This document shows positions 52,744-64,000 of a DNA stretch of 64,000 nt, piece by piece (the stretch's first letter is position 1; the number at the start of each line of letters is the position of its first letter). Source of the DNA: Vicinamibacterales bacterium (GTDB lineage: Bacteria; Acidobacteriota; Vicinamibacteria; Vicinamibacterales; CAVVIG01); assembly GCA_050183995.1 (NCBI GenBank), contig JBFXAT010000015.1, positions 7,415-71,414 of the forward strand, given 5' to 3'. The notes beneath the pieces were generated by a model. It was not told the DNA's origin. It saw only the letters and a program-made list of their open reading frames with translations, and searched no databases. The position numbers were made by a program, and so were the translations under genes.

Positions 52744-53778
52744 TCAGCGCAATGCGCGCGGCATGGTCAGCCCCACCCGGGGCTTCACGCCGGTCGCGCC
52801 GGAACGCTTCGATCGGCGGCCCGCTCTGCTCTCGAGGACGTATCCGAGGAGCTCCCACAGGCGCGTCTCGTGGCCGAACGCGTCAGCGGGGGTGCCGCGC
52901 AGGCTCGTGTGGATCCACTCCGCAAACTCGCCTGCGAACTGGCGAAACGCGAACAGGGGAATGCCGAACGCCCGGCTGAACTCCGCCGGCTCGGGCCGCA
53001 GACCCAGAACCGGATCGGACAGCTCCTGAAAGGCCATGCGGGTATTGCAGCGGCCGATGTTCAGATGCCATCTGCGGTGATACGCCTTCGTCATCCGCTC
53101 CGGATCGACCGGCGCCTGCACGAGCATGTCCGGCACGTAGAGCGCCCGCTCTCCGGCCCTGTACATCCTCAAGAGGAACTCCGTGTCCTGGGCACGCACG
53201 AAGGCCGTATCGAAAAGGCCGACGCGGCTGAAGACACTCTTTCGAAACGCCAGGTTGGCGCCCGCCAGACAGATGGGACGCTTCGCGTCGACGATGAACG
53301 ACGCCGTGCCGTAGTCCTGCAGCGCAAGAGGGCCGACCCAATGCTCCGTCGTCAACCACGGTGGAGGCGGAAAGGGCCAGAGCGGGAGCGTCCGCCCGCC
53401 GGCGCCCGCGATGTCCGGATGCGCGGACAGCGCCTGATGAACGCTGCTGACCCACGTGCTGCCGACGCACACGTCGTCATCGGTGAATGCGACAATCGGC
53501 GCGGTCGCCGCGGCGATGCCGGCGTTCCTGGCGTACGACAGCCCCTGACGCGGCTCGAACACATACCGCACGCGCTCGAAACGCCGCTGGAAGCGCTCGA
53601 CCACCTGCGGTGTCCCGTCGTTCGAGTTGTTGTCGACGACGATGACGTCGAAGGGAGGTGTCGACCGCGTCTGCTCAGCGAGCGCCGCAAGCGCGCGTTC
53701 GAGAGGGGTGGCCCGGTTGAACGTGCTCACGACGACGGTGACGGCGGAGGGCGGCACGATGTCCGTGCGGTCGAGCAA
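52744..53778 (-). CDS. Family 2 glycosyltransferase
   Basis: VTVVVSTFNR ... VIVVDNNSNDGT ... AFTDDD (DxD) ... and later QDTEF. Confidence 0.88.
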   Translation of the reverse strand: MLDRTDIVPPSAVTVVVSTFNRATPLERALAALAEQTRSTPPFDVIVVDNNSNDGTPQVVERFQRRFERVRYVFEPRQGLSYARNAGIAAATAPIVAFTDDDVCVGSTWVSSVHQALSAHPDIAGAGGRTLPLWPFPPPPWLTTEHWVGPLALQDYGTASFIVDAKRPICLAGANLAFRKSVFSRVGLFDTAFVRAQDTEFLLRMYRAGERALYVPDMLVQAPVDPERMTKAYHRRWHLNIGRCNTRMAFQELSDPVLGLRPEPAEFSRAFGIPLFAFRQFAGEFAEWIHTSLRGTPADAFGHETRLWELLGYVLESRAGRRSKRSGATGVKPRVGLTMPRALR

Positions 53779-55891: not shown

Positions 55892-55925
55892 CTGCGTCAG
55901 TATTGAGGCTGCGTCAGTATTGAGG
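55892..55925. repeat. Perfect 17-bp tandem duplication (ctgcgtcagtattgagg x2) spanning the stop codon of the 23-haem cytochrome gene
   Basis: Copy 1 is 55892-55908 and copy 2 is 55909-55925. Copy 2 encodes P-Q-Y-stop of the gene ending at 55914. Confidence 0.9.
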
Positions 55926-57710
55926 ATGACAGGCCGAGCAGGTGCGCCCGACCAGGTACCGGACGGCGACGCCCTCGCCAGAGGGGAAGCGGCCGCGTTC
56001 CGGTTTGTGGCAGTCCTTGCAGGCATAGCGGCCGTGGAATCCGTCGAAGAAGTCCTTCAGCTCGCGGTGTACGTACGAGCCGCCGACGTGGAAGGTCGAT
56101 GCCGTGTGACATGCGGCGCACGTCGCGCCGAGCTGTCCGAGGTGCACGTCGCTGTGGCACGTGACGCAGGCCGGTTCGATTGGCTTGAACCGGACGGCCG
56201 TACCCGTGTGCGCAGGGAAAGCCGTTGTCTGGGTGACGTGACATGTCGAACACGCGATCGACGCGTGCGCCCCTTCGAGCCGCAGCCGTGCGCGTTCGTG
56301 TGAGAACGCCAGCGCTTCGAACCCGCGCCCGTCGATCGCGTGGCATTGATCGCACGAAGGGTCGAGCTGTCCCAGGTGCGGATCGGCGTGGCACGTCACG
56401 CACTGCATCGACGGCAAGGCGGCTGGCGCAGGCCGCTCCGCTCGACTGGGGATGTGGCACTGCGTGCACGTGAGCGCCTGGTGAGCGCCTGCGAAGAATT
56501 TCGGTTCTCGCGGGTGGCGGAAGTCTTTCACGCTGAATGTCGCCTGGCTATGGCACGTGTCGCACGCCCGCCCGAACGACCCTTGATGGGGGTCCCGCGC
56601 TTCGTGGCACGACACGCACGCCGCGGTGGCGCCGCTGAAGTCGACGGTCCGCTTTGCCAACGGGACGGTTCGGTCGGATACGCCCTCGTGGCACTTGTCG
56701 CACGAGATCTCGGCATGTCTGCCCTCGAGCGCAAACGTGGTCTTCGCGGCGTGATCGAACGGCGCTCCCGCGAACGATCGCTCGGTGTGACATGAGGCGC
56801 AATCGCCCTCGATGCTCTGTCGATGCGGGGTGTCGTGGCATGACGCGCACGTGCGCGACTCGATCGCGATGGTCGCGCGCCCACGCTTGTGACACGCCTC
56901 GCAGGCGACGCGCGTATGCGCGCCGGCGAGGGGGAAGCGCGTGCGTTCGTGCGCGATGGTCCGCGTCGTCCACGCCTGTGTCGTGTGGCACGAGGTGCAG
57001 GCGGCGCCCAGCCGCCGCTCGTGCGGCTCGCGGTGACACGCCGTGCACGAGGCAAACGCCACGCCCGTGAACTGGCTGCGGTCCTGGCCGCTCGTGTGGC
57101 ACTGTTCGCACGCAGCCGTCCGATGGGCGCCGGTGAGCGGGAAGCGTGTCGTACGGTGATCGAACGATGTGCGCGCCGTCTTGAACGATGGGCTTGCCGG
57201 AGGGTGGCACGTCGCACACGCGCCTGCCAACGATCCCTTGTGCGGATCGTCATGGCACGTGTCGCAGCCTGGCTTCAGATCCAGAAAGGACCGGCTCTTG
57301 TGGCACGCCGTGCATGTACCAGCGACCTTGGCGTGGGCTCCGGCGAGCGGAAATCCCGCCTCCGCCGAATGGTCGAAACGCTTCGTGTCGATGGGCCGCA
57401 GCTCGCCGTCGGCTCCAGCGTGCTCGACGTGGCAGATCACGCACTGTGTCGCTTGGCGGTGGACGCCTTTGCGGCTGGCCAGGCGGACCGCAATCGGCTG
57501 GTGACACGAGAGGCACCGGTCCGTACTCACTCTGCGTCCTGCTTCGTGGCACCGCTGACACTGATTGCCCTCGAGCTGACGATGTGCACGCGACAACCCG
57601 CCGGGTGAGAGAAGGGCGCTCAGCTGCCCGGCATCGGCTGGCGATACCGACAGGAGCCCAACGGCCATCGCCGCCACCAACGTAGGCACCAGCCCAAGGC
57701 CGCCGCCCAT
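55914..57710 (-). CDS. Periplasmic or extracellular multihaem c-type cytochrome, 23 CXXCH motifs, built from cytochrome-c7-like repeats
   Basis: 598 aa from ATG 57710, with a signal-like N-terminus (MGGGLGLVPTLVAAMAVGLLSVSPADA). I counted 23 CXXCH motifs in the translation. A recurring module is F-x-H-x-x-H ... C-x-x-C-H ... C-x-x-C-H-x-x-P-H. Confidence 0.9.
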   Translation of the reverse strand: MGGGLGLVPTLVAAMAVGLLSVSPADAGQLSALLSPGGLSRAHRQLEGNQCQRCHEAGRRVSTDRCLSCHQPIAVRLASRKGVHRQATQCVICHVEHAGADGELRPIDTKRFDHSAEAGFPLAGAHAKVAGTCTACHKSRSFLDLKPGCDTCHDDPHKGSLAGACATCHPPASPSFKTARTSFDHRTTRFPLTGAHRTAACEQCHTSGQDRSQFTGVAFASCTACHREPHERRLGAACTSCHTTQAWTTRTIAHERTRFPLAGAHTRVACEACHKRGRATIAIESRTCASCHDTPHRQSIEGDCASCHTERSFAGAPFDHAAKTTFALEGRHAEISCDKCHEGVSDRTVPLAKRTVDFSGATAACVSCHEARDPHQGSFGRACDTCHSQATFSVKDFRHPREPKFFAGAHQALTCTQCHIPSRAERPAPAALPSMQCVTCHADPHLGQLDPSCDQCHAIDGRGFEALAFSHERARLRLEGAHASIACSTCHVTQTTAFPAHTGTAVRFKPIEPACVTCHSDVHLGQLGATCAACHTASTFHVGGSYVHRELKDFFDGFHGRYACKDCHKPERGRFPSGEGVAVRYLVGRTCSACHPQY

Positions 57711-57726
57711 GATGGCTCCAGCGTAC

Positions 57727-58653
57727 TCACTCCGAGAACGGCACATACCCCATGTACAGCGTGACGCCCACGTGAGCGACGACAATAGCGAACATGATGT
57801 AGACGAGCGGCATGTGGAACACATGCCAGAGCTCGAACAGCTGCTTCGTTCGGCGAAGGTGGGCCATCCGGCGAAGCAGGGTGGCACGTTCGGTTCCGAT
57901 CGCGATCACCCGCTCGTGCACGCTGGACGCACCGGGCAGGTGCGTGACCGCCGCTTCGAAGCGAGCGACCTCCCGTCGCAGAACGTGCTCTACGGTGAAC
58001 ACGGAGAAGTAGCTGACGTCGCCTGACGGCACGACTCGCTGCTCGAACTCCTCGATCGCACGCAAGAGGAGCTCAGGAACCGATCCGTCGGCCAGTTCCC
58101 GCCCGAGGTCGGCCGCGCGGCGGTTCAGATCGGCTTCGTCCACCTCCAGGCCACGGAGCGTCCTGGGGATCCTGTTGAACAGGTACCGCCCGATGAAACC
58201 GGACGACACGACGATCATCATGGACCAATACGCGACCGAGATGATGCCCCCGAACTTGAACGATGTGTGAAAGGTGACGAACACTGGGCCGACGATGCCG
58301 CAGAAGATGTGCAGGTCGAGCCACCGGCGCATCGACCCGAGGTTGCGCAGCCGCTTCATCTTCTTCCGAACCGCGTACGCGACGGGCATCAACATCATGA
58401 CGAAGCCGATCACGCCGAACAGGTGGCCGACGCGTCCGGTCGGCCGCAGCAGTGGGTGCGCCGCGGTGTAGCCGCGAATCGCCGCGGGTGCGGTGTAGTA
58501 GCTCCATCCGTCGAGGCCGATGAGGATGTAGGAAGCAATGCCGGCCGTTGCGATTCCGCTCAGCACCAGCACGTTGGCGACGGCAGCCCTGGCCCCGGAG
58601 ACCGCGGTCCCGGCGGTGGCACTGGGCTGTGGACGGGGAGCGGACGCCTGCAT
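57727..58653 (-). CDS. Integral membrane protein with two H-x13-H transmembrane helices (candidate di-haem b-type electron carrier)
   Basis: 308 aa with about 5 TM helices. One helix has LHIFCGIVGPVFVTFH (H-x13-H) and another has FHMPLVYIMFAIVVAHV (H-x13-H). A roughly 110-aa soluble loop lies between the fourth and fifth helices. Confidence 0.7.
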   Translation of the reverse strand: MQASAPRPQPSATAGTAVSGARAAVANVLVLSGIATAGIASYILIGLDGWSYYTAPAAIRGYTAAHPLLRPTGRVGHLFGVIGFVMMLMPVAYAVRKKMKRLRNLGSMRRWLDLHIFCGIVGPVFVTFHTSFKFGGIISVAYWSMMIVVSSGFIGRYLFNRIPRTLRGLEVDEADLNRRAADLGRELADGSVPELLLRAIEEFEQRVVPSGDVSYFSVFTVEHVLRREVARFEAAVTHLPGASSVHERVIAIGTERATLLRRMAHLRRTKQLFELWHVFHMPLVYIMFAIVVAHVGVTLYMGYVPFSE

Positions 58654-58656
58654 GCG

Positions 58657-60033
58657 TCAGGCATCCACCGTGCAGTCGCTGACCACCTGCGTCACGCAGG
58701 CCAGCACGTAGCCGGCGGCGCGATCCTCGTCGTCCAGGATGGTCGACGGGCAGGTCGTCTCGCCGCTGATGATCTTCGTGCGGCAGGTGCCGCACACGCC
58801 CTGTCGGCAGAGCGATGGGATGTCGGCCCCGCAGCGCTCCGCCGCTTCGAGCAGCGTCTGGGTGCTCTCGACTGTCGTCGTCTGGCCGCTGCGCTCGAAG
58901 GTGACGTCGTGACCCGCCTCCGGCGAGACGTGCCCGTCGCCGACGGGCGGAGGTGGCTCGGCGGTGCGGCTGCTGGCGGCGATCGCCGCCTGGAACACTT
59001 CCGACCGGATCTGCGAGCGGGGCACACCGACCCTGTCGAGCATCGACGTCATGGCGTCGATCATCGGCTGCGGCCCGCAGAGGAGACAGACGCTGTGGCC
59101 CACGTCCGGGACCACGGCACCAATCAGAGACTCGCAGATGCGCCCCGGGAAGTAGCTGGGTCCGGCGGGGCCATGTGTAATCGCGATGGCGACGCGGACA
59201 TGATCGTTTCGTTTCGCGATCAGATCGAGCTCGTCGCGAAACGCGACATCCTCGACGCGGCGCACCGAATAGAGCAGCGTGATCGGGCGCGTCGGCTCCG
59301 TCTCGACCCCGTGCCGCAGCATCGACATGAGCGGCGTGATTCCCACCCCTCCGGCCACCAGGACGAGCGGCCGATCGTCGTCGGTCGGGTAGCAGAATGA
59401 ACCCGCGGGCTGCCGGATGGTGAGCAGCGATCCCGGTCGAATCGTCGCGTGCAAGGCGCCCGAAACGAGTCCGAGGCGTTTGACGGAGATCTCGAGATGC
59501 CCGCGGACGCCGGGCGACGAGCTGATCGAATAGCAGCGTACGTGTTCGCGACCGTCGGCGCGCAGGCGAACGGTGAGGAACTGGCCGGCCTTGAACGCGA
59601 AGCCTTCCGGCCGCGCAAGACGGAACGTCCGGATGTCCGGTGTCTCTTCGAAGACCGCCATGACCGGCGCCTGCACGAACGCCGATGGTCGGCGCGCGGC
59701 TTGGGCAATGCCCTGGATCAACCTGGGCTCGCTCGCCGCGGCCCGTCTTGTCGCGGTCGCATCTACCGATCGTGGTCGCGTGGGGAATTTTTCCCCGGGC
59801 ACGAGCAGTCTCTCGCATGCGATGAACCACGCCACGTGTGCGGCGAAGCCGATAGCGAGCCCGATCGGTGTTGGCAGCAACCAGGGAGACGCGGCGAACA
59901 GGAGTGAAATCGCAGTTACGAAATAGCGACTCGCGCCGCGTGTGGTGCGCTGCGAGCGGAGCACGACCAGCGCGAGGTGTAAGGTCGTCGTAAACGCGAG
60001 AATCGACGAAGCGGCCGGCAGTGACACGTTCAT
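58657..60033 (-). CDS. Membrane-anchored ferredoxin-NAD(P)+ reductase-like flavoprotein with a C-terminal plant-type 2Fe-2S ferredoxin domain
   Basis: 458 aa from ATG 60033 with about 3 N-terminal TM helices. The FAD motif is RCYSISS, the NAD(P) motif is LVAGGVGITP, and the C-terminus has CRQGVCGTC...C (Cx4Cx2C...C). Confidence 0.88.
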   Translation of the reverse strand: MNVSLPAASSILAFTTTLHLALVVLRSQRTTRGASRYFVTAISLLFAASPWLLPTPIGLAIGFAAHVAWFIACERLLVPGEKFPTRPRSVDATATRRAAASEPRLIQGIAQAARRPSAFVQAPVMAVFEETPDIRTFRLARPEGFAFKAGQFLTVRLRADGREHVRCYSISSSPGVRGHLEISVKRLGLVSGALHATIRPGSLLTIRQPAGSFCYPTDDDRPLVLVAGGVGITPLMSMLRHGVETEPTRPITLLYSVRRVEDVAFRDELDLIAKRNDHVRVAIAITHGPAGPSYFPGRICESLIGAVVPDVGHSVCLLCGPQPMIDAMTSMLDRVGVPRSQIRSEVFQAAIAASSRTAEPPPPVGDGHVSPEAGHDVTFERSGQTTTVESTQTLLEAAERCGADIPSLCRQGVCGTCRTKIISGETTCPSTILDDEDRAAGYVLACVTQVVSDCTVDA

Positions 60034-60210
60034 TGCTTTTCGAATGACAGCAAGACAGTCGAACGATCGACAGGTCGACGCGAAGCTGTATCGAGCGTCG
60101 ATGTGCAAGCAGAATACCGCGGAGGTTCTTTCGATCTCACGCGTCGATGGACGGAGGGCACCGGCCGCTCGAGTGGCGCGCCGATTGCGTAGTGCACGAC
60201 ACCGGCTCCC

Positions 60211-61305
60211 ATGTCCCGTCGATCGATCGTCGAGTTCGTGACGCGCAGCGTCCTGTCTGTCGTGGTGTGTGGTGTTGGCGCGCAGCACGCTGTCGTTGCG
60301 CAGAAAAAATCCGCACCAGACGCGCGCGCGGAAAAATCCCCGCCGCCACAGTTGGTGTGGCCGCTACCGCCGGAACCTCCCCGCATCCGATTTCTTCGTG
60401 CCTACCGGGGCCCCGACGATGTGAAGGGCGGGAAGAAGAAGTCGTCGAGACTCGCGTCACTGATACTGGGCCCTCAGGTGTCAGGTCAAGTGACGGACGC
60501 ACTCGTGAAGCCGTACGGTGTCGCGGCGTCGAGCGCCGGCGTGATCTACGTGGCTGACTCCGCGTCACGGCGGGTGCACGTCTTCAACCCGGAGGCGCGA
60601 ACCGTCACGTTCCTGGGTGAGCGGGGCAACGGCAGGCTGGTGAAGCCGATTGGCGTCACCGTCGACGCCGCCGACGTGGTGTATGTTGCCGACGCGACGC
60701 TGAAGCGCGTGTTCGGCTACGGGCCCGAAGGCGCTCTGCGCATTGCGCTCGGGCGCGACGGTGAGCTCGAGAACCCGTCCGGGATTGCCATAGACCCCTC
60801 TGGTGAGCGGCTGTACGTCGCCGATGCGTCGAAGCACCACGTGGTCGCGTATTCGACGGAGACCGGGGCGATCGTGCGCACCATCGGCAGGCGCGGCGAG
60901 GCCGAAGGGGAGTTCAACTTTCCCACCAACATCGCGGTCGATCGGCGCGGGTGGCTGTATGTGGCCGATACGCTCAACTTCCGCATCCAGATGTTCGACG
61001 CCGAGGGGCGCTTCGTGCGCACCTTCGGTCAGATCGGCGACAGCTTCGGCTCCATGAACAGACCGAAGGGCATCGCCGTCGACAGCGAGGGGCACGTCTA
61101 CGTCGTGGACGCCTCGTTCAACAACTTTCAGATCTTCGACGAGCAGGGTCAGCTGCTCTTGTTCGTCGGGTCCGGCGGTGCGGGCTCCGGTGAGTTCTTT
61201 CTTCCAGCCGGGATGTTCATCGACGCGCAGGACCGCATCTACGTGGCGGACCAGGGGAACGCGAGAGTGCAAGTATTCCAGTATCTGAATGGAGCGAGCA
61301 GATGA
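60211..61305 (+). CDS. Secreted NHL-repeat beta-propeller protein
   Basis: 364 aa with a signal-like N-terminus. Six repeats follow the pattern P-x-G-(I/V)-A/T-V-D-x-x-G-x-(I/V/L)-Y-V-A-D, including NFRIQMFD and NARVQVFQ. Confidence 0.85.
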   Translation: MSRRSIVEFVTRSVLSVVVCGVGAQHAVVAQKKSAPDARAEKSPPPQLVWPLPPEPPRIRFLRAYRGPDDVKGGKKKSSRLASLILGPQVSGQVTDALVKPYGVAASSAGVIYVADSASRRVHVFNPEARTVTFLGERGNGRLVKPIGVTVDAADVVYVADATLKRVFGYGPEGALRIALGRDGELENPSGIAIDPSGERLYVADASKHHVVAYSTETGAIVRTIGRRGEAEGEFNFPTNIAVDRRGWLYVADTLNFRIQMFDAEGRFVRTFGQIGDSFGSMNRPKGIAVDSEGHVYVVDASFNNFQIFDEQGQLLLFVGSGGAGSGEFFLPAGMFIDAQDRIYVADQGNARVQVFQYLNGASR

Positions 61306-62072
61306 AACGAGCCAGTTTCATAGCAGGACTCGCATTGCTGCTGTCGGCGAACAGCAGTTATGCGCAGAACACATCGACAATCGCCGGCGGGCCGCACGAC
61401 TTGAGTACGGGCAGTGCGGTCAGGAACTCGGACAGCACCATCAACGGCCAGACCTGTGTCTTCTGTCACACGCCGCACGGCGGTTCGACGAACCAGCCGC
61501 TCTGGAACCGGACCAATCCCGGCACGGCGGGATACCAGGTCTACACGAGCTCGACGAGCAATACGACCGCCACGGCGACCGCGGTCGTGTCGGGCGTGTC
61601 GGGGGCCTGTCTGAGCTGCCACGACGGCACCATTGCCATGGACGTGGTGACCAACGTCAACGGCACGACGTTCGGCACGGCGCCGACCGGCGGATCGGTG
61701 GGCTTCACCAAGCAGGGCACCGCCAAGGCCGACTACACAAACGGGAGCGGGGGCACCGGCAACGTCATGCTGAGCGGCATGCCGTTCATCGGCACGGACC
61801 TGCGCAACGACCATCCCGTGGCGATCCAGTACAAGACCGCCTACGACGCCGACACGACGCACTACCGGGCGGCCACGCTCTCCGGCAGCAAGCTGTTCGT
61901 CTCGAATGCCGGTGTCCAGCTGCCGCTCTACGGCACTACGTTGGCCGACGCGACGGTCGAATGCGCCAGCTGCCACGATGCGCACAACAACTCGCTGAAC
62001 GGCACCAACGGCGGATTCCTCCGCGTGTCGAATGCCAACAGCGCGATGTGCAGCACCTGCCACAACAAGTAG
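61302..62072 (+). CDS. Secreted tetrahaem c-type cytochrome (OmcS/OmcE-like motif layout)
   Basis: 256 aa with a signal peptide (cleavage likely after SYA). The four CXXCH motifs are CVFCHTPH, CLSCHDG, CASCHDAH and CSTCHNK at the extreme C-terminus. The linkers are Ser/Thr/Gly/Asn-rich. ATGA overlap with the NHL gene. Confidence 0.85.
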   Translation: MKRASFIAGLALLLSANSSYAQNTSTIAGGPHDLSTGSAVRNSDSTINGQTCVFCHTPHGGSTNQPLWNRTNPGTAGYQVYTSSTSNTTATATAVVSGVSGACLSCHDGTIAMDVVTNVNGTTFGTAPTGGSVGFTKQGTAKADYTNGSGGTGNVMLSGMPFIGTDLRNDHPVAIQYKTAYDADTTHYRAATLSGSKLFVSNAGVQLPLYGTTLADATVECASCHDAHNNSLNGTNGGFLRVSNANSAMCSTCHNK

Positions 62073-62082
62073 CAGGTGGCCC

Positions 62083-63087
62083 GTGCGACTCCCGTTCCTG
62101 ACGATCCTCGTTCTGCCGCTCGCCAGCGCCATGGTTACGGCGCAGCGGGCCGTGCCGTCACACGAACCATCCTCCCCGAGGCCCGCCACGGCAACGGTTC
62201 CCGGGGTGGCGCGGGTGAACGGCGTGGCGATCTCGAAGGACAGGCTGGATGCCGCCGTCTCGGCGCTGGTCCCGCAGGAGTCGTTTCACCGCAGCGTGAA
62301 GCCCGAGAAGATGGCGGAGCTGCGAGCGAAAGCGCTCGCGACCCTCATCGACGAGGAGCTCGCCTATCAGGACGGTATCCGCCGCGGGATCGCCGCGGCG
62401 GATACCGACGTCCGCCGCTCGTGGGCCGACATGGCCCGCACCTACGGTGGAGACGCCAAGTTTCGTGCGGCCCTTCAGACGGCCCATGTCGCGGAGGCGA
62501 CCGTTCGGCAGGAGATGGCGCGTCGGGTCGTGATTGGGAAGAGCGTGGACAGCGCGGTCACCGGCCGTTGTGCCGTCGGTCTCGAGGAGGCCGCCGCCTT
62601 CTTTCGAGACAATCCCGCCCGTTTCCTCGAGCCCGAGCAGGTGCACGTGTTTGGCATCACCATCGGCGTCGACCCGAGCGGTGGCGCCGCCGCGTGGCGC
62701 GCGGCCCGCGCGCGGGCGGACGACGCGGACCGTGCCCTGCAGGCGGGCCGCCCGTTTTCGGAGGTGGCCGCCGAATACTCCACCGACCCCAGCCGCAGCC
62801 AGGGCGGCGACATGGGGTTCGTCCATCGCGGCAGCATGAACGCGCCCTTCGAGGAGATCGTGAAGACCCTCGAGGTCGGACGCACCAGTCCCGTCATCGA
62901 GTCGCTCTACGGCTATCACATCCTTCGCCTCTCGGAAGTGCGGCCGCCGGTCCGCAAGACCTTCGAGCAGGTGTCGGCGACCCTACGCCGGGACCTGACA
63001 GCGAGGCGGTGCGCCGAGCGCAAGGCGGCGTGGCTGGCGGATCTGCGCAGCGGGGCGCGCATCGAGACGTTCGAGCCCACGCGATGA
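62083..63087 (+). CDS. Periplasmic PpiC/parvulin-type peptidyl-prolyl isomerase (SurA/PrsA-like)
   Basis: 334 aa from GTG 62083 with a signal-like N-terminus. The SurA-N-like chaperone region contains VNGVAISKDRLD. The parvulin core is FSEVAAEYSTDPSRSQGGDMGFV...PFEE...GYHILRL. Confidence 0.85.
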   Translation: MRLPFLTILVLPLASAMVTAQRAVPSHEPSSPRPATATVPGVARVNGVAISKDRLDAAVSALVPQESFHRSVKPEKMAELRAKALATLIDEELAYQDGIRRGIAAADTDVRRSWADMARTYGGDAKFRAALQTAHVAEATVRQEMARRVVIGKSVDSAVTGRCAVGLEEAAAFFRDNPARFLEPEQVHVFGITIGVDPSGGAAAWRAARARADDADRALQAGRPFSEVAAEYSTDPSRSQGGDMGFVHRGSMNAPFEEIVKTLEVGRTSPVIESLYGYHILRLSEVRPPVRKTFEQVSATLRRDLTARRCAERKAAWLADLRSGARIETFEPTR

Positions 63088-64000
63088 CATCCGCGGTCCG
63101 CGCCGCGGCGGCCGGGCTGCTGCTCGTCGTGGGGACCACGGCGCACGCGCAGGTCATGTCCGGCACCGCGCAGGTCGACGTCATCGGCTCCGGTACGCGC
63201 ACGCGCGGCATGGACAGCCGCGACAACATGGTCGCGCAGACCTACACGTTCAACTGGGCTTCGCCGCTGATCGACGAGCGCCTGGTCCGGTACGACCTCG
63301 GCACCTCGTTCTCGACCTTCCGCCAACGCGCGACGCGGCCCGACCGCGCCGACCAGACCGGGCGCGCCGGCAACCTCGGTTACCAACTCGGCGCGCAACT
63401 GCTGTCGGCCAGTCCGTTTCCGCTCACGGTTCGCCTGTCCCGGCTGCGAACGACGTCGCTGGGGGATCTCGGTCTGACCAACCCGATCCGCAACGGCCTG
63501 ATCTCGGCCAGCGGCGCGCCTCCGTCCGACTACGAAGCCATCAATCACGACATGATGCTGAACTGGCATGTCGGACTCGGGCGCCTGCCGACGGTGGACC
63601 TGTCGTATCGGCGCAACTCGTCGGACATGAGCGGCGGCAATATCGCGGCATCGCAGCAGGCGCGCAATCTCACCACGGCGGTGTCAAAGTCGTCACCGCG
63701 CACGCACTACACGCTCCGCTATCAGTCGTCACACGCCGAGAACCATCTCGACCAGACGTACACGCAGCGGCTCGGCACGCTCGACTACGCCTTCGGCGCG
63801 ACCCTGACGAAACACAGTCGCCTGAATGTCACCGCCGGCCGCCGCAGCGCCTTCTCGCGTGTGCTGTTCCAGGTGCCGTCCGACACGGCCACCGGTGCCT
63901 ACGCCCCGCCGGTCGATCCGGGCGGCGGGGGCAGCGGGCTCTACGGTCAGGTGGGGTACCACTACGATCCGGGGAGCCGGTTCACGCTGCGCGCGACGGC
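63084..64000 (+). CDS. Partial CDS (5' part, runs off the window): probable outer-membrane beta-barrel protein
   Basis: This ORF is absent from the supplied track because no stop is reached. I translated it by hand from ATG 63084 (ATGA overlap with the PPIase stop) and found no stop through 64000. It has a signal peptide (MTSAVRAAAAGLLLVVGTTAHAQ) and then alternating beta-strand-like text rich in Y/R/N/G/T. Confidence 0.6.
   Translation, partial: MTSAVRAAAAGLLLVVGTTAHAQVMSGTAQVDVIGSGTRTRGMDSRDNMVAQTYTFNWASPLIDERLVRYDLGTSFSTFRQRATRPDRADQTGRAGNLGYQLGAQLLSASPFPLTVRLSRLRTTSLGDLGLTNPIRNGLISASGAPPSDYEAINHDMMLNWHVGLGRLPTVDLSYRRNSSDMSGGNIAASQQARNLTTAVSKSSPRTHYTLRYQSSHAENHLDQTYTQRLGTLDYAFGATLTKHSRLNVTAGRRSAFSRVLFQVPSDTATGAYAPPVDPGGGGSGLYGQVGYHYDPGSRFTLRAT

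Follow-up and report, generated by a model that had tools for sequence, protein, structure and literature searches.

What kind of machinery does the operon at the end of this stretch of DNA encode, and does it follow the assembly logic of the Geobacter cytochrome nanowires? The window, by which we mean the whole 64,000-nucleotide stretch from a Vicinamibacterales bacterium (G+C content, 68%), ends at positions 60211–64000 with linked genes that the first-pass annotation had described as encoding a secreted NHL propeller, a small secreted tetrahaem cytochrome, a SurA-like parvulin peptidyl-prolyl isomerase (PPIase) and an outer-membrane barrel running off the window. It had also placed NHL-repeat and PPIase genes beside the Geobacter nanowire genes omcS and omcE, and suggested the same assembly logic in a distant lineage. 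Cytochrome nanowires are structurally documented in only a few organisms, and the literature leaves their secretion, anchoring, initiation and charging as open questions. Our analysis indicates that the window probably holds the beginning of a cassette of six genes for extracellular electron transfer at the outer membrane, here called OmcE/Uet-type after the OmcE nanowire cytochrome and the uet gene cluster of the Tenderiales. The host is a Vicinamibacterales-like Acidobacterium; the order Vicinamibacterales belongs to the Acidobacteriota.

The operon was extended beyond the window on the 61.9-kb public contig L001 (GCA_050247735.1), which has 0 mismatches to window positions 60211–64000, and reads as follows:

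60211–61305, plus strand: NHL propeller A, 364 amino acids (aa); six-bladed beta-propeller with signal peptide, Pfam NHL
61302–62072, plus strand: OmcE/UetA-type tetrahaem c-type cytochrome, 256 aa; signal peptide at about residues 1–21
62083–63087, plus strand: SurA-like PpiC PPIase, 334 aa from a GTG start; SurA_N_3 and Rotamase_3 domains
63084–64000, plus strand: outer-membrane barrel, N-terminal 305 aa without a stop codon; the whole 607 aa are encoded at L001:11783–13606
L001:13603–14601, beyond the window end: propeller B, the second NHL propeller, 332 aa
L001:14598–16397, beyond the window end: undecahaem cytochrome, 599 aa

The four window genes were read directly from the sequence as linked plus-strand genes with ATGA overlaps at 61302–61305 and 63084–63087 and one 10-nt gap (62073–62082), just as first annotated. 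The contig extension recovered the full 607-aa barrel gene, followed by the genes for propeller B and the undecahaem cytochrome, giving the order propeller A, OmcE-like tetrahaem cytochrome, PPIase, barrel, propeller B and undecahaem cytochrome, in which all six genes follow one another with 4-nt overlaps save at the single 10-nt gap. Because the barrel and propeller B genes overlap by 4 nt, nothing lies between them. The six genes are predicted from this layout to be co-transcribed and translationally coupled. A promoter/terminator scan found no promoter-like site in the operon, and its count of terminator-like sites (6, against a shuffled expectation of 3.5 ± 2.0) was uninformative.

All four window proteins carry signal peptides, as judged by eye from their N-termini. 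The gene callers made the same choice of start for the PPIase, GTG at 62083, and a longer ATG alternative lies at 62032. For propeller A, the public call (L001:9189–10004, 271 aa) begins 93 codons late compared with L001:8910–10004 and omits the signal peptide and a conserved N-terminal motif; the 364-aa open reading frame (ORF) is the better gene model. The exact tetrahaem protein is also encoded on two Logan contigs besides L001.

The small secreted tetrahaem cytochrome was recovered as first described, with exactly four CXXCH motifs (residues 52, 103, 221 and 250) in its 256 aa and an N-terminus that by eye resembles a cleavable signal peptide with the site SYA/Q. Four further histidines (H32, H59, H171 and H228) are available as haem ligands. 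Pfam gave this protein nothing but generic multihaem matches. In a PDB sequence search, the protein matched the OmcE filament of G. sulfurreducens (7TFS) with an E-value of 3.3e-28 over query residues 8–114 and 152–256, and the OmcE of D. soudanensis (9YUQ), known as a bundled nanowire from a 2025 preprint (bioRxiv 10.1101/2025.10.22.684050), over its full length with an E-value of 3.4e-24. These two OmcE entries were the only multihaem filament proteins found; neither the archaeal filament cytochromes nor OmcS gave a PDB match at E ≤ 10. Identity to OmcE is only about 33–41%, and in an alignment of both solved OmcEs and eight environmental homologues, the eight Cys, the four CXXCH His and H32, H59, H171 and H228 were invariant. 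The same pattern of four CXXCH regions and four other ligand His is reported as conserved among OmcE homologues (bioRxiv 10.1101/2025.10.22.684050), and according to reviews, one interfacial haem of OmcE is ligated by a His from each of two adjoining subunits. By homology, then, the window protein is assigned as a secreted relative of filament-forming OmcE that keeps all eight axial His. Its nearest named relatives, at 63–72% identity, are from 'Vicinamibacterales bacterium' records, and the OmcE-like family as a whole comprises more than 6,200 proteins at E ≤ 1e-5.

A ninth His, H187 (window 61860–61862), is conserved only in the nearest Vicinamibacterales relatives of the tetrahaem cytochrome. 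A nine-His OmcE-like protein has been speculated to cap the filament (bioRxiv 10.1101/2025.10.22.684050); in the window locus, it is the presumed major subunit that carries the ninth His.

Geobacter-type omcE loci were obtained by rebuilding the 7TFS sequence from PDB alignments and scanning it against metagenome contigs; a word-index protein search with G. sulfurreducens OmcE returned a single 52%-identical fragment. The OmcE encoded at one such locus, L084, is 78% identical to that of G. sulfurreducens, and those at several other loci are 41–50% identical. The Geobacter-type layout runs purH-purD-resB-ccsB, a 9-haem cytochrome, an 8-haem cytochrome, a propeller lipoprotein, OmcE, (a second propeller), a barrel of about 750 aa that ends in Phe, and glycosyltransferases. 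The same synteny is given for the Desulfuromonadia, where the minimal omcE cluster consists of OmcE, a large barrel and two each of multihaem cytochromes and beta-propeller lipoproteins, and where a large barrel plus a beta-propeller nearby serves as the working criterion for a nanowire-competent OmcE homologue (bioRxiv 10.1101/2025.10.22.684050). By that criterion, the window locus offers propellers A and B and a barrel of 28 strands. Set against the minimal cluster, the window operon has two propellers, an OmcE homologue, a barrel and one multihaem cytochrome, with a further, 23-haem cytochrome in a divergent operon.

Propeller A bore out its description as a secreted NHL propeller, with a Pfam NHL match at E 2.6e-34 and the signal peptide seen by eye, after which stands a conserved WPLPPEPPRIRFL motif. 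It aligned over its full length (33% identity; BLASTP E 5e-57) with the propeller encoded directly upstream of omcE in L084 (L084:7887–8999), and an N-terminal WPxxPxxPR motif aligned in the two proteins. Propellers A and B are paralogues (37% identity), both carrying the motif W-P-x-P-P-x-P-P-R-I-R-F-L after the signal peptide. Neither has a canonical lipobox, whereas the Geobacter-type counterparts have one. The proline-rich pattern W-P-x-(x)-P-x-x-P-R-[IL], located at window 60340–60400 (propeller A residues ~45–63), is common to the Geobacter-type omcE propellers; this element may serve for docking to the barrel or the subunit.

The barrel protein gave no Pfam or NCBIfam match with its 305-aa window part. 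The AlphaFold2 (AF2) model of the full 607-aa protein is all-beta with 28 strands (predicted local distance difference test, pLDDT, 64; predicted template modelling score, pTM, 0.50), in keeping with the barrel that had been noticed at the window end. The best PDB fold match of the model was MtrB of the Shewanella Mtr complex (6R2Q_B; E 5.6e-11, TM 0.62), followed by LptD and TonB-dependent receptors (E ~1e-7, TM 0.21–0.45). A word-index search with the barrel returned five homologues and a profile scan only 76 at E ≤ 1e-3 among 1.84 billion representatives, a sparse yield that points to fast divergence. When profiles of the window-type and Geobacter-type barrels were compared with hhalign, iterated sets gave 98.5% (E 2e-15), with the caveat that these sets overlapped between the types via shared Nitrospirota intermediates, which could inflate the score; repeated with non-overlapping first-round sets, the match was weaker (87.7%, E 3e-6) and still clearly above the reversed-sequence controls (<3%). 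Window-type and proteobacterial barrel profiles matched at 96–100%, the proteobacterial loci having a barrel too diverged for the first hidden Markov model (HMM). This profile evidence makes the window barrel and the ~750-aa one encoded downstream of Geobacter-type omcE remote homologues.

The likeness to the Geobacter omcE neighbourhood thus holds for the most part, and as far as the refuting condition named in the first-pass annotation could be applied, the comparison withstood it; that the cytochrome is itself an OmcE homologue goes beyond that annotation. Both have a subunit of the same family with the four CXXCH and four extra His conserved, a homologous upstream propeller with the same motif, a second propeller and a remotely homologous barrel downstream, and multihaem cytochromes encoded in the cluster; the placing of propellers beside omcE is supported by the literature and by the recovered loci, both of which add a large barrel. 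The PPIase is the exception, as it stands beside omcE in none of the Geobacter-type loci with enough flank to judge. Only the Geobacter-type loci have the 8-haem and 9-haem cytochromes upstream, the ~750-aa barrel and a glycosylation island, whereas features peculiar to the window operon are its PPIase, a barrel of 607 aa and, downstream, an undecahaem cytochrome that contains an OmcE-like module. Because the PPIase and the OmcE-module undecahaem cytochrome are absent there, the assembly logic is not identical to that of Geobacter omcE.

As no PPIase occurs in the recovered Geobacter-type omcE loci, it is to uet and to osc, the cluster that accompanies omcS, that the PPIase points, not to omcE. 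The window PPIase has the SurA-like parvulin architecture first ascribed to it, namely SurA_N_3 (Pfam, 5e-9) and a single parvulin/PpiC domain (Rotamase_3, 3.5e-18), and matched SurA in the PDB with E 1e-18; its median score to the PPIases of OmcE-family loci is 96 bits, compared with 71 bits to E. coli SurA. In the osc cluster of G. sulfurreducens, the prolyl isomerase is reportedly OscH, the channel OscEFG and the propeller OscD. Osc and the window operon thus have helpers of like kinds: a chaperone of the PPIase type, a barrel in the outer membrane, propellers and additional multihaem cytochromes. In a 2026 paper that cites Shen et al. 2025 (PMC13194489), OscH is proposed to act in OmcS folding. 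The subunits differ, that of osc being OmcS, a hexahaem cytochrome that reviews describe as having no sequence homology to OmcE; the window has no hexahaem cytochrome, and OmcS was absent from the PDB search described above.

By gene content and order, the closest named system, not mentioned in the first-pass annotation, is the uet cluster, uetABCDEFGHIJ, of 'Ca. Tenderia electrophaga' and the Tenderiales, also reported in some Gallionella (bioRxiv 10.1101/2022.05.06.490989; PMC9900912); the likeness to Tenderia is by gene description. In that cluster, UetA is an extracellular tetrahaem cytochrome, UetB a PPIase, UetD, UetE and UetG trihaem c7 cytochromes, UetF a cupredoxin, UetH and UetI NHL propellers and UetJ an undecahaem cytochrome (bioRxiv 10.1101/2022.05.06.490989; PMC9900912), and UetC is a barrel predicted with 28 strands (bioRxiv 10.1101/2022.05.06.490989). 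The shared genes come in the same order as in the window operon: tetrahaem cytochrome, PPIase, 28-strand barrel, one propeller of the UetH/I type and undecahaem cytochrome. Only uet has the c7 cytochromes and the cupredoxin between the barrel and NHL genes, none of which occurs in the window operon, and only uet has a downstream ccsAB-nrfG-batABD block, whereas the window operon is followed by a convergent GT1 glycosyltransferase gene. The window operon, for its part, has an extra propeller upstream of the tetrahaem cytochrome, as in Geobacter omcE clusters. The hosts differ as well, a gammaproteobacterial electroautotroph for uet and an Acidobacterium here. Judged by sequence and position, propeller A is the predicted counterpart of the Geobacter-type omcE upstream propeller and of UetH/I, the putatively periplasmic SurA-like PPIase occupies the UetB position, and the barrel that of UetC.

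A uet-like layout also appeared in OmcE-family loci of genomes named Gallionella, Thiohalomonadaceae and Thioalkalispiraceae. In two proteobacterial loci, Pfam recognised a single c7-type cytochrome among the genes separating barrel from propellers, the remaining matches being weak ones to tetratricopeptide repeats (TPR); these loci are uet-like and not identical to that of Tenderia. Because the uet-like Gallionella, Thiohalomonadaceae and Thioalkalispiraceae loci surfaced in the OmcE family search, UetA-position proteins can be equated with OmcE and would belong to the OmcE family. No paper within the literature searched makes this equation, and the OmcE preprint mentions neither Uet nor Acidobacteria, its five phyla excluding the Acidobacteriota (bioRxiv 10.1101/2025.10.22.684050).

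The undecahaem cytochrome at the end of the operon has 11 CXXCH motifs and one CX3CH, and its Pfam matches are to generic multihaem families. Its residues 10–208 matched 7TFS in a single stretch (PDB search, E 5.2e-21). This N-terminal module matched an HMM of the tetrahaem-only family with E 4e-42 over model positions 18–244 of 256 and is 32% identical to the window tetrahaem cytochrome, with all eight ligand His aligned; seven further haem motifs follow it. The fusion of an OmcE module also heads a 10/11-haem cytochrome in the cassettes of several other lineages. In the Geobacter-type loci recovered, by contrast, the family HMM found no OmcE module in the 8- and 9-haem cytochromes, only a short paired-CXXCH match. 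The OmcE-like module of the undecahaem cytochrome is a concrete, testable candidate for the filament base.

How widely the arrangement is conserved was assessed in a locus scan with the family alignment, taking one genome per GTDB species, which yielded at least 584 relatives. By record name, the best 80 of these included, within the Acidobacteriota, Vicinamibacterales, Geothrix fermentans DSM 14018, Holophagaceae and Thermoanaerobaculia; outside it were Ignavibacteria, Calditrichaceae, KSB1, Bacteroidota, Chlorobiaceae, Gemmatimonadota, Nitrospirota, Binatia, Schekmanbacteria, Opitutia, Magnetococcales and many Beta- and Gammaproteobacteria. Going by genome names, more than a dozen lineages have the cassette. 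Neighbours were counted with iterated HMMs from the window proteins against six-frame ORFs, at OmcE-family genome loci with enough flank. A propeller lay just upstream of the OmcE homologue in 48 of 72 loci and a PPIase directly downstream in 43 of the same number; nearby, a recognisable barrel was found in 45/62 and a downstream propeller in 50/60, and a multihaem cytochrome with an OmcE module was present in at least 24 of 49. The co-occurrence called for by the first-pass annotation is thus observed, and the linkage of propeller, PPIase and barrel to the OmcE family goes, on these counts, far beyond chance.

Among the carriers are three cultured strains, Geothrix fermentans DSM 14018 (L026), Noviherbaspirillum sp. 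ST 5-3 (L054) and Aromatoleum toluolicum T (L065), whose loci encode a propeller, an OmcE-like tetrahaem cytochrome, a large downstream ORF and a PPIase. The large ORF is a recognised barrel in L054 and L065 and a 587-aa candidate in L026, where the locus is rearranged, the candidate barrel and a 7-haem cytochrome preceding a longer PPIase. These strains offer practical organisms for testing filament formation. One locus labelled Thermoplasmata archaeon (L053; JBHHWA010000004.1) has a bacterial-type cassette with an outer-membrane barrel and the gene order of L043, on a contig labelled Deltaproteobacteria; it is probably a misbinned bacterial contig and not an archaeal system.

The surroundings of the operon comprise three further features:

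52744–53778, minus strand: GT2 glycosyltransferase, in the flank upstream of the locus
55914–60288, minus strand: divergent reductase/23-haem operon, a tentative electron-input partner
L001:16488–17406, minus strand: convergent GT1 glycosyltransferase after the undecahaem gene; contig L001 stops within it

The divergent operon is present as first annotated, on the minus strand, with a membrane-anchored FAD/NAD(P)-binding reductase carrying a 2Fe-2S domain (Pfam FAD_binding_6, NAD_binding_1 and Fer2), a polytopic membrane protein of 308 aa that contains several His and matched no family, and a cytochrome with 23 CXXCH motifs. It adjoins the cassette only in L001, L002, L004 and L005, the closest Vicinamibacterales relatives (subunits 64–100% identical). 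Going by this adjacency in the closest relatives, a lineage-specific functional link between the divergent operon and the cassette is plausible. The PCC3 system of Fe(II) oxidisers, whose 21–27-haem periplasmic cytochromes are discussed as possibly spanning the periplasm, was considered for the 23-haem cytochrome and rejected; as described, it has no tetrahaem, PPIase and NHL set (PMC9900912).

Glycosyltransferase genes lie on both sides of the locus, GT2 upstream and GT1 just past the operon. Thr, Gly, Ser and Asn make up about 45% of the mature tetrahaem cytochrome, in which seven N-x-S/T sequons occur; in G. sulfurreducens OmcE, additional densities are seen that probably stem from glycans. 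The subunit may be glycosylated, given these flanking genes, sequons and OmcE densities and the glycosylation islands of Geobacter omcE loci.

From these parts we propose that the Sec pathway would export the cytochromes, which would receive their haem in the periplasm, where the PPIase chaperone could keep the coil-rich tetrahaem cytochrome assembly-competent, after the role proposed for OscH with OmcS. The barrel and propellers would pass or anchor the cytochrome through the outer membrane, after the UetC and OscEFG proposals. Outside the cell, the tetrahaem cytochrome would polymerise head-to-tail, inter-subunit bis-His haem ligation yielding a continuous haem chain, and the undecahaem cytochrome would link periplasmic carriers to that chain. 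In the host lineage, the 23-haem cytochrome may act as the periplasmic carrier, with the NAD(P)H-type reductase supplying its electrons. Electron transfer across the outer membrane of the host thus probably relies on machinery of a known kind that the literature searched does not report for this lineage.

Several points weigh against this reading. The case for filament formation by the tetrahaem cytochrome comes from homology. An AF2 monomer model from a 65-sequence alignment (pLDDT 46.5, pTM 0.34) was too poor for a fold search, and the identification of the protein therefore rests on sequence homology. Metal respiration is not known from the Vicinamibacterales. Sequences of the tetrahaem OmcE-like kind occur very widely, and the OmcE authors caution that not every homologue need form wires (bioRxiv 10.1101/2025.10.22.684050); the physiological role of OmcE and OmcS filaments is itself disputed. 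The recovered Geobacter-type omcE clusters have neither an OmcE-module undecahaem cytochrome nor a PPIase, the latter being found beside omcE in none of the loci with enough flank (L084, L094, L095, L099, L101, L106 and L107). Finally, MtrB, a cytochrome-sheathing porin, as the barrel's best fold match fits a conduit that forms no filament equally well.

One alternative to be taken seriously, if short of likely, is that the cassette runs inward and takes up electrons by oxidising Fe(II), minerals or partner cells, a role that has been put forward for uet in both 'Ca. Tenderia electrophaga' and Gallionella. It is with uet that gene content and order match best, and genomes named Gallionella, Thioalkalispiraceae, Magnetococcales and Nitrospirota carry homologous cassettes; several of these belong to lithotrophic groups. 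Against an inward flow, the divergent NAD(P)H-type FAD/2Fe-2S reductase with its 23-haem cytochrome reads more naturally as an electron source, uetDEFG are absent, ccsAB-nrfG-bat is not at its uet position, and homologues are found in the Fe(III) reducers Geothrix fermentans and Geobacter. Because multihaem chains are reversible, sequence alone cannot decide the direction.

The main rival to a filament is a porin-cytochrome conduit, in which the barrel sheathes the undecahaem cytochrome as MtrB does MtrA, the tetrahaem cytochrome is monomeric at the surface or in the periplasm, and the propellers and PPIase only aid assembly; it seems rather unlikely to us. Eddie et al. put forward such a conduit, of UetC with UetJ/UetA, for electron uptake and only speculated about polymers (bioRxiv 10.1101/2022.05.06.490989). 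The Mtr complex (6R2Q) resembles the window operon in having a very large outer-membrane barrel gene beside that of a ~10–11-haem cytochrome, and its MtrB is the best fold match, as noted above; identity to MtrB, however, is only 10% over the Foldseek alignment, MtrB has 26 strands compared with 28, and Mtr has no PPIase, propellers or OmcE-type subunit. The window tetrahaem cytochrome, moreover, is homologous over its full length to two proteins whose solved structures are filaments, and it keeps all four extra ligand His, and since both solved OmcEs also adjoin a large barrel and propellers in the genome, the barrel is no argument against a filament. The two models, conduit and filament, can coexist.

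The weakest alternative, a quinol dehydrogenase of the NrfH/NapC type that is anchored in the membrane and serves a periplasmic reductase, with unrelated genes as neighbours, is highly improbable: the NCBIfam cytochr_NrfH match that speaks for it (E 3.5e-9, residues 7–112), alongside weak DmsE-family matches, reaches 36.9 bits against a 134-bit cutoff over less than half of the protein, a score so far below the curated cutoff that this reading is effectively refuted, whereas the only PDB cytochrome matches are OmcE filaments (E ≤ 1e-24), the N-terminus looks cleavable (SYA/Q), no gene for such a reductase lies nearby, and the neighbours are conserved with the tetrahaem family across many named lineages. 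An MtrA/DmsE reading of the tetrahaem cytochrome was likewise rejected, its NCBIfam score lying far below the curated cutoff (TIGR03508, 30 bits versus 192), as did its score for the MtrC/OmcA family (TIGR03507, 19 bits versus 209). The 23-haem cytochrome scored 39 bits with TIGR03508 against the cutoff of 192.

Within the filament-forming cassette that we favour, the undecahaem cytochrome invites a further, tentative proposal, doubtful as a whole. It might supply the nanowire with its missing base or adaptor, the N-terminal module co-polymerising with the first tetrahaem subunit via an inter-subunit His-haem bond and its seven-haem C-terminal extension threading the 28-strand barrel towards the periplasm; the Uet, OmcE-companion and Osc-type systems might then be variants of one ancient porin-anchored cytochrome filament machine in many bacterial lineages.

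The Vicinamibacterales, abundant soil Acidobacteria, are not known for extracellular electron transfer, and the locus places an OmcE-type subunit with a compact, complete helper set in this order. Taken as sequence-level assignments, the subunit's family membership, the six-gene coupled operon, the propeller and remote barrel homology, the uet-like order and the broad conservation can be regarded as established. The main value of the finding lies in connecting three literatures, on omcE in Geobacter, on the osc genes that accompany omcS and on uet in the Tenderiales, which are kept separate in the literature searched, and in highlighting the OmcE-module undecahaem cytochrome as a candidate filament base. 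If the proposal for that protein is true, a single six-gene cassette would encode subunit, primer or anchor, membrane sheath, chaperone and propeller helpers, and the carriers of a porin-anchored filament machine would include abundant soil Acidobacteria.

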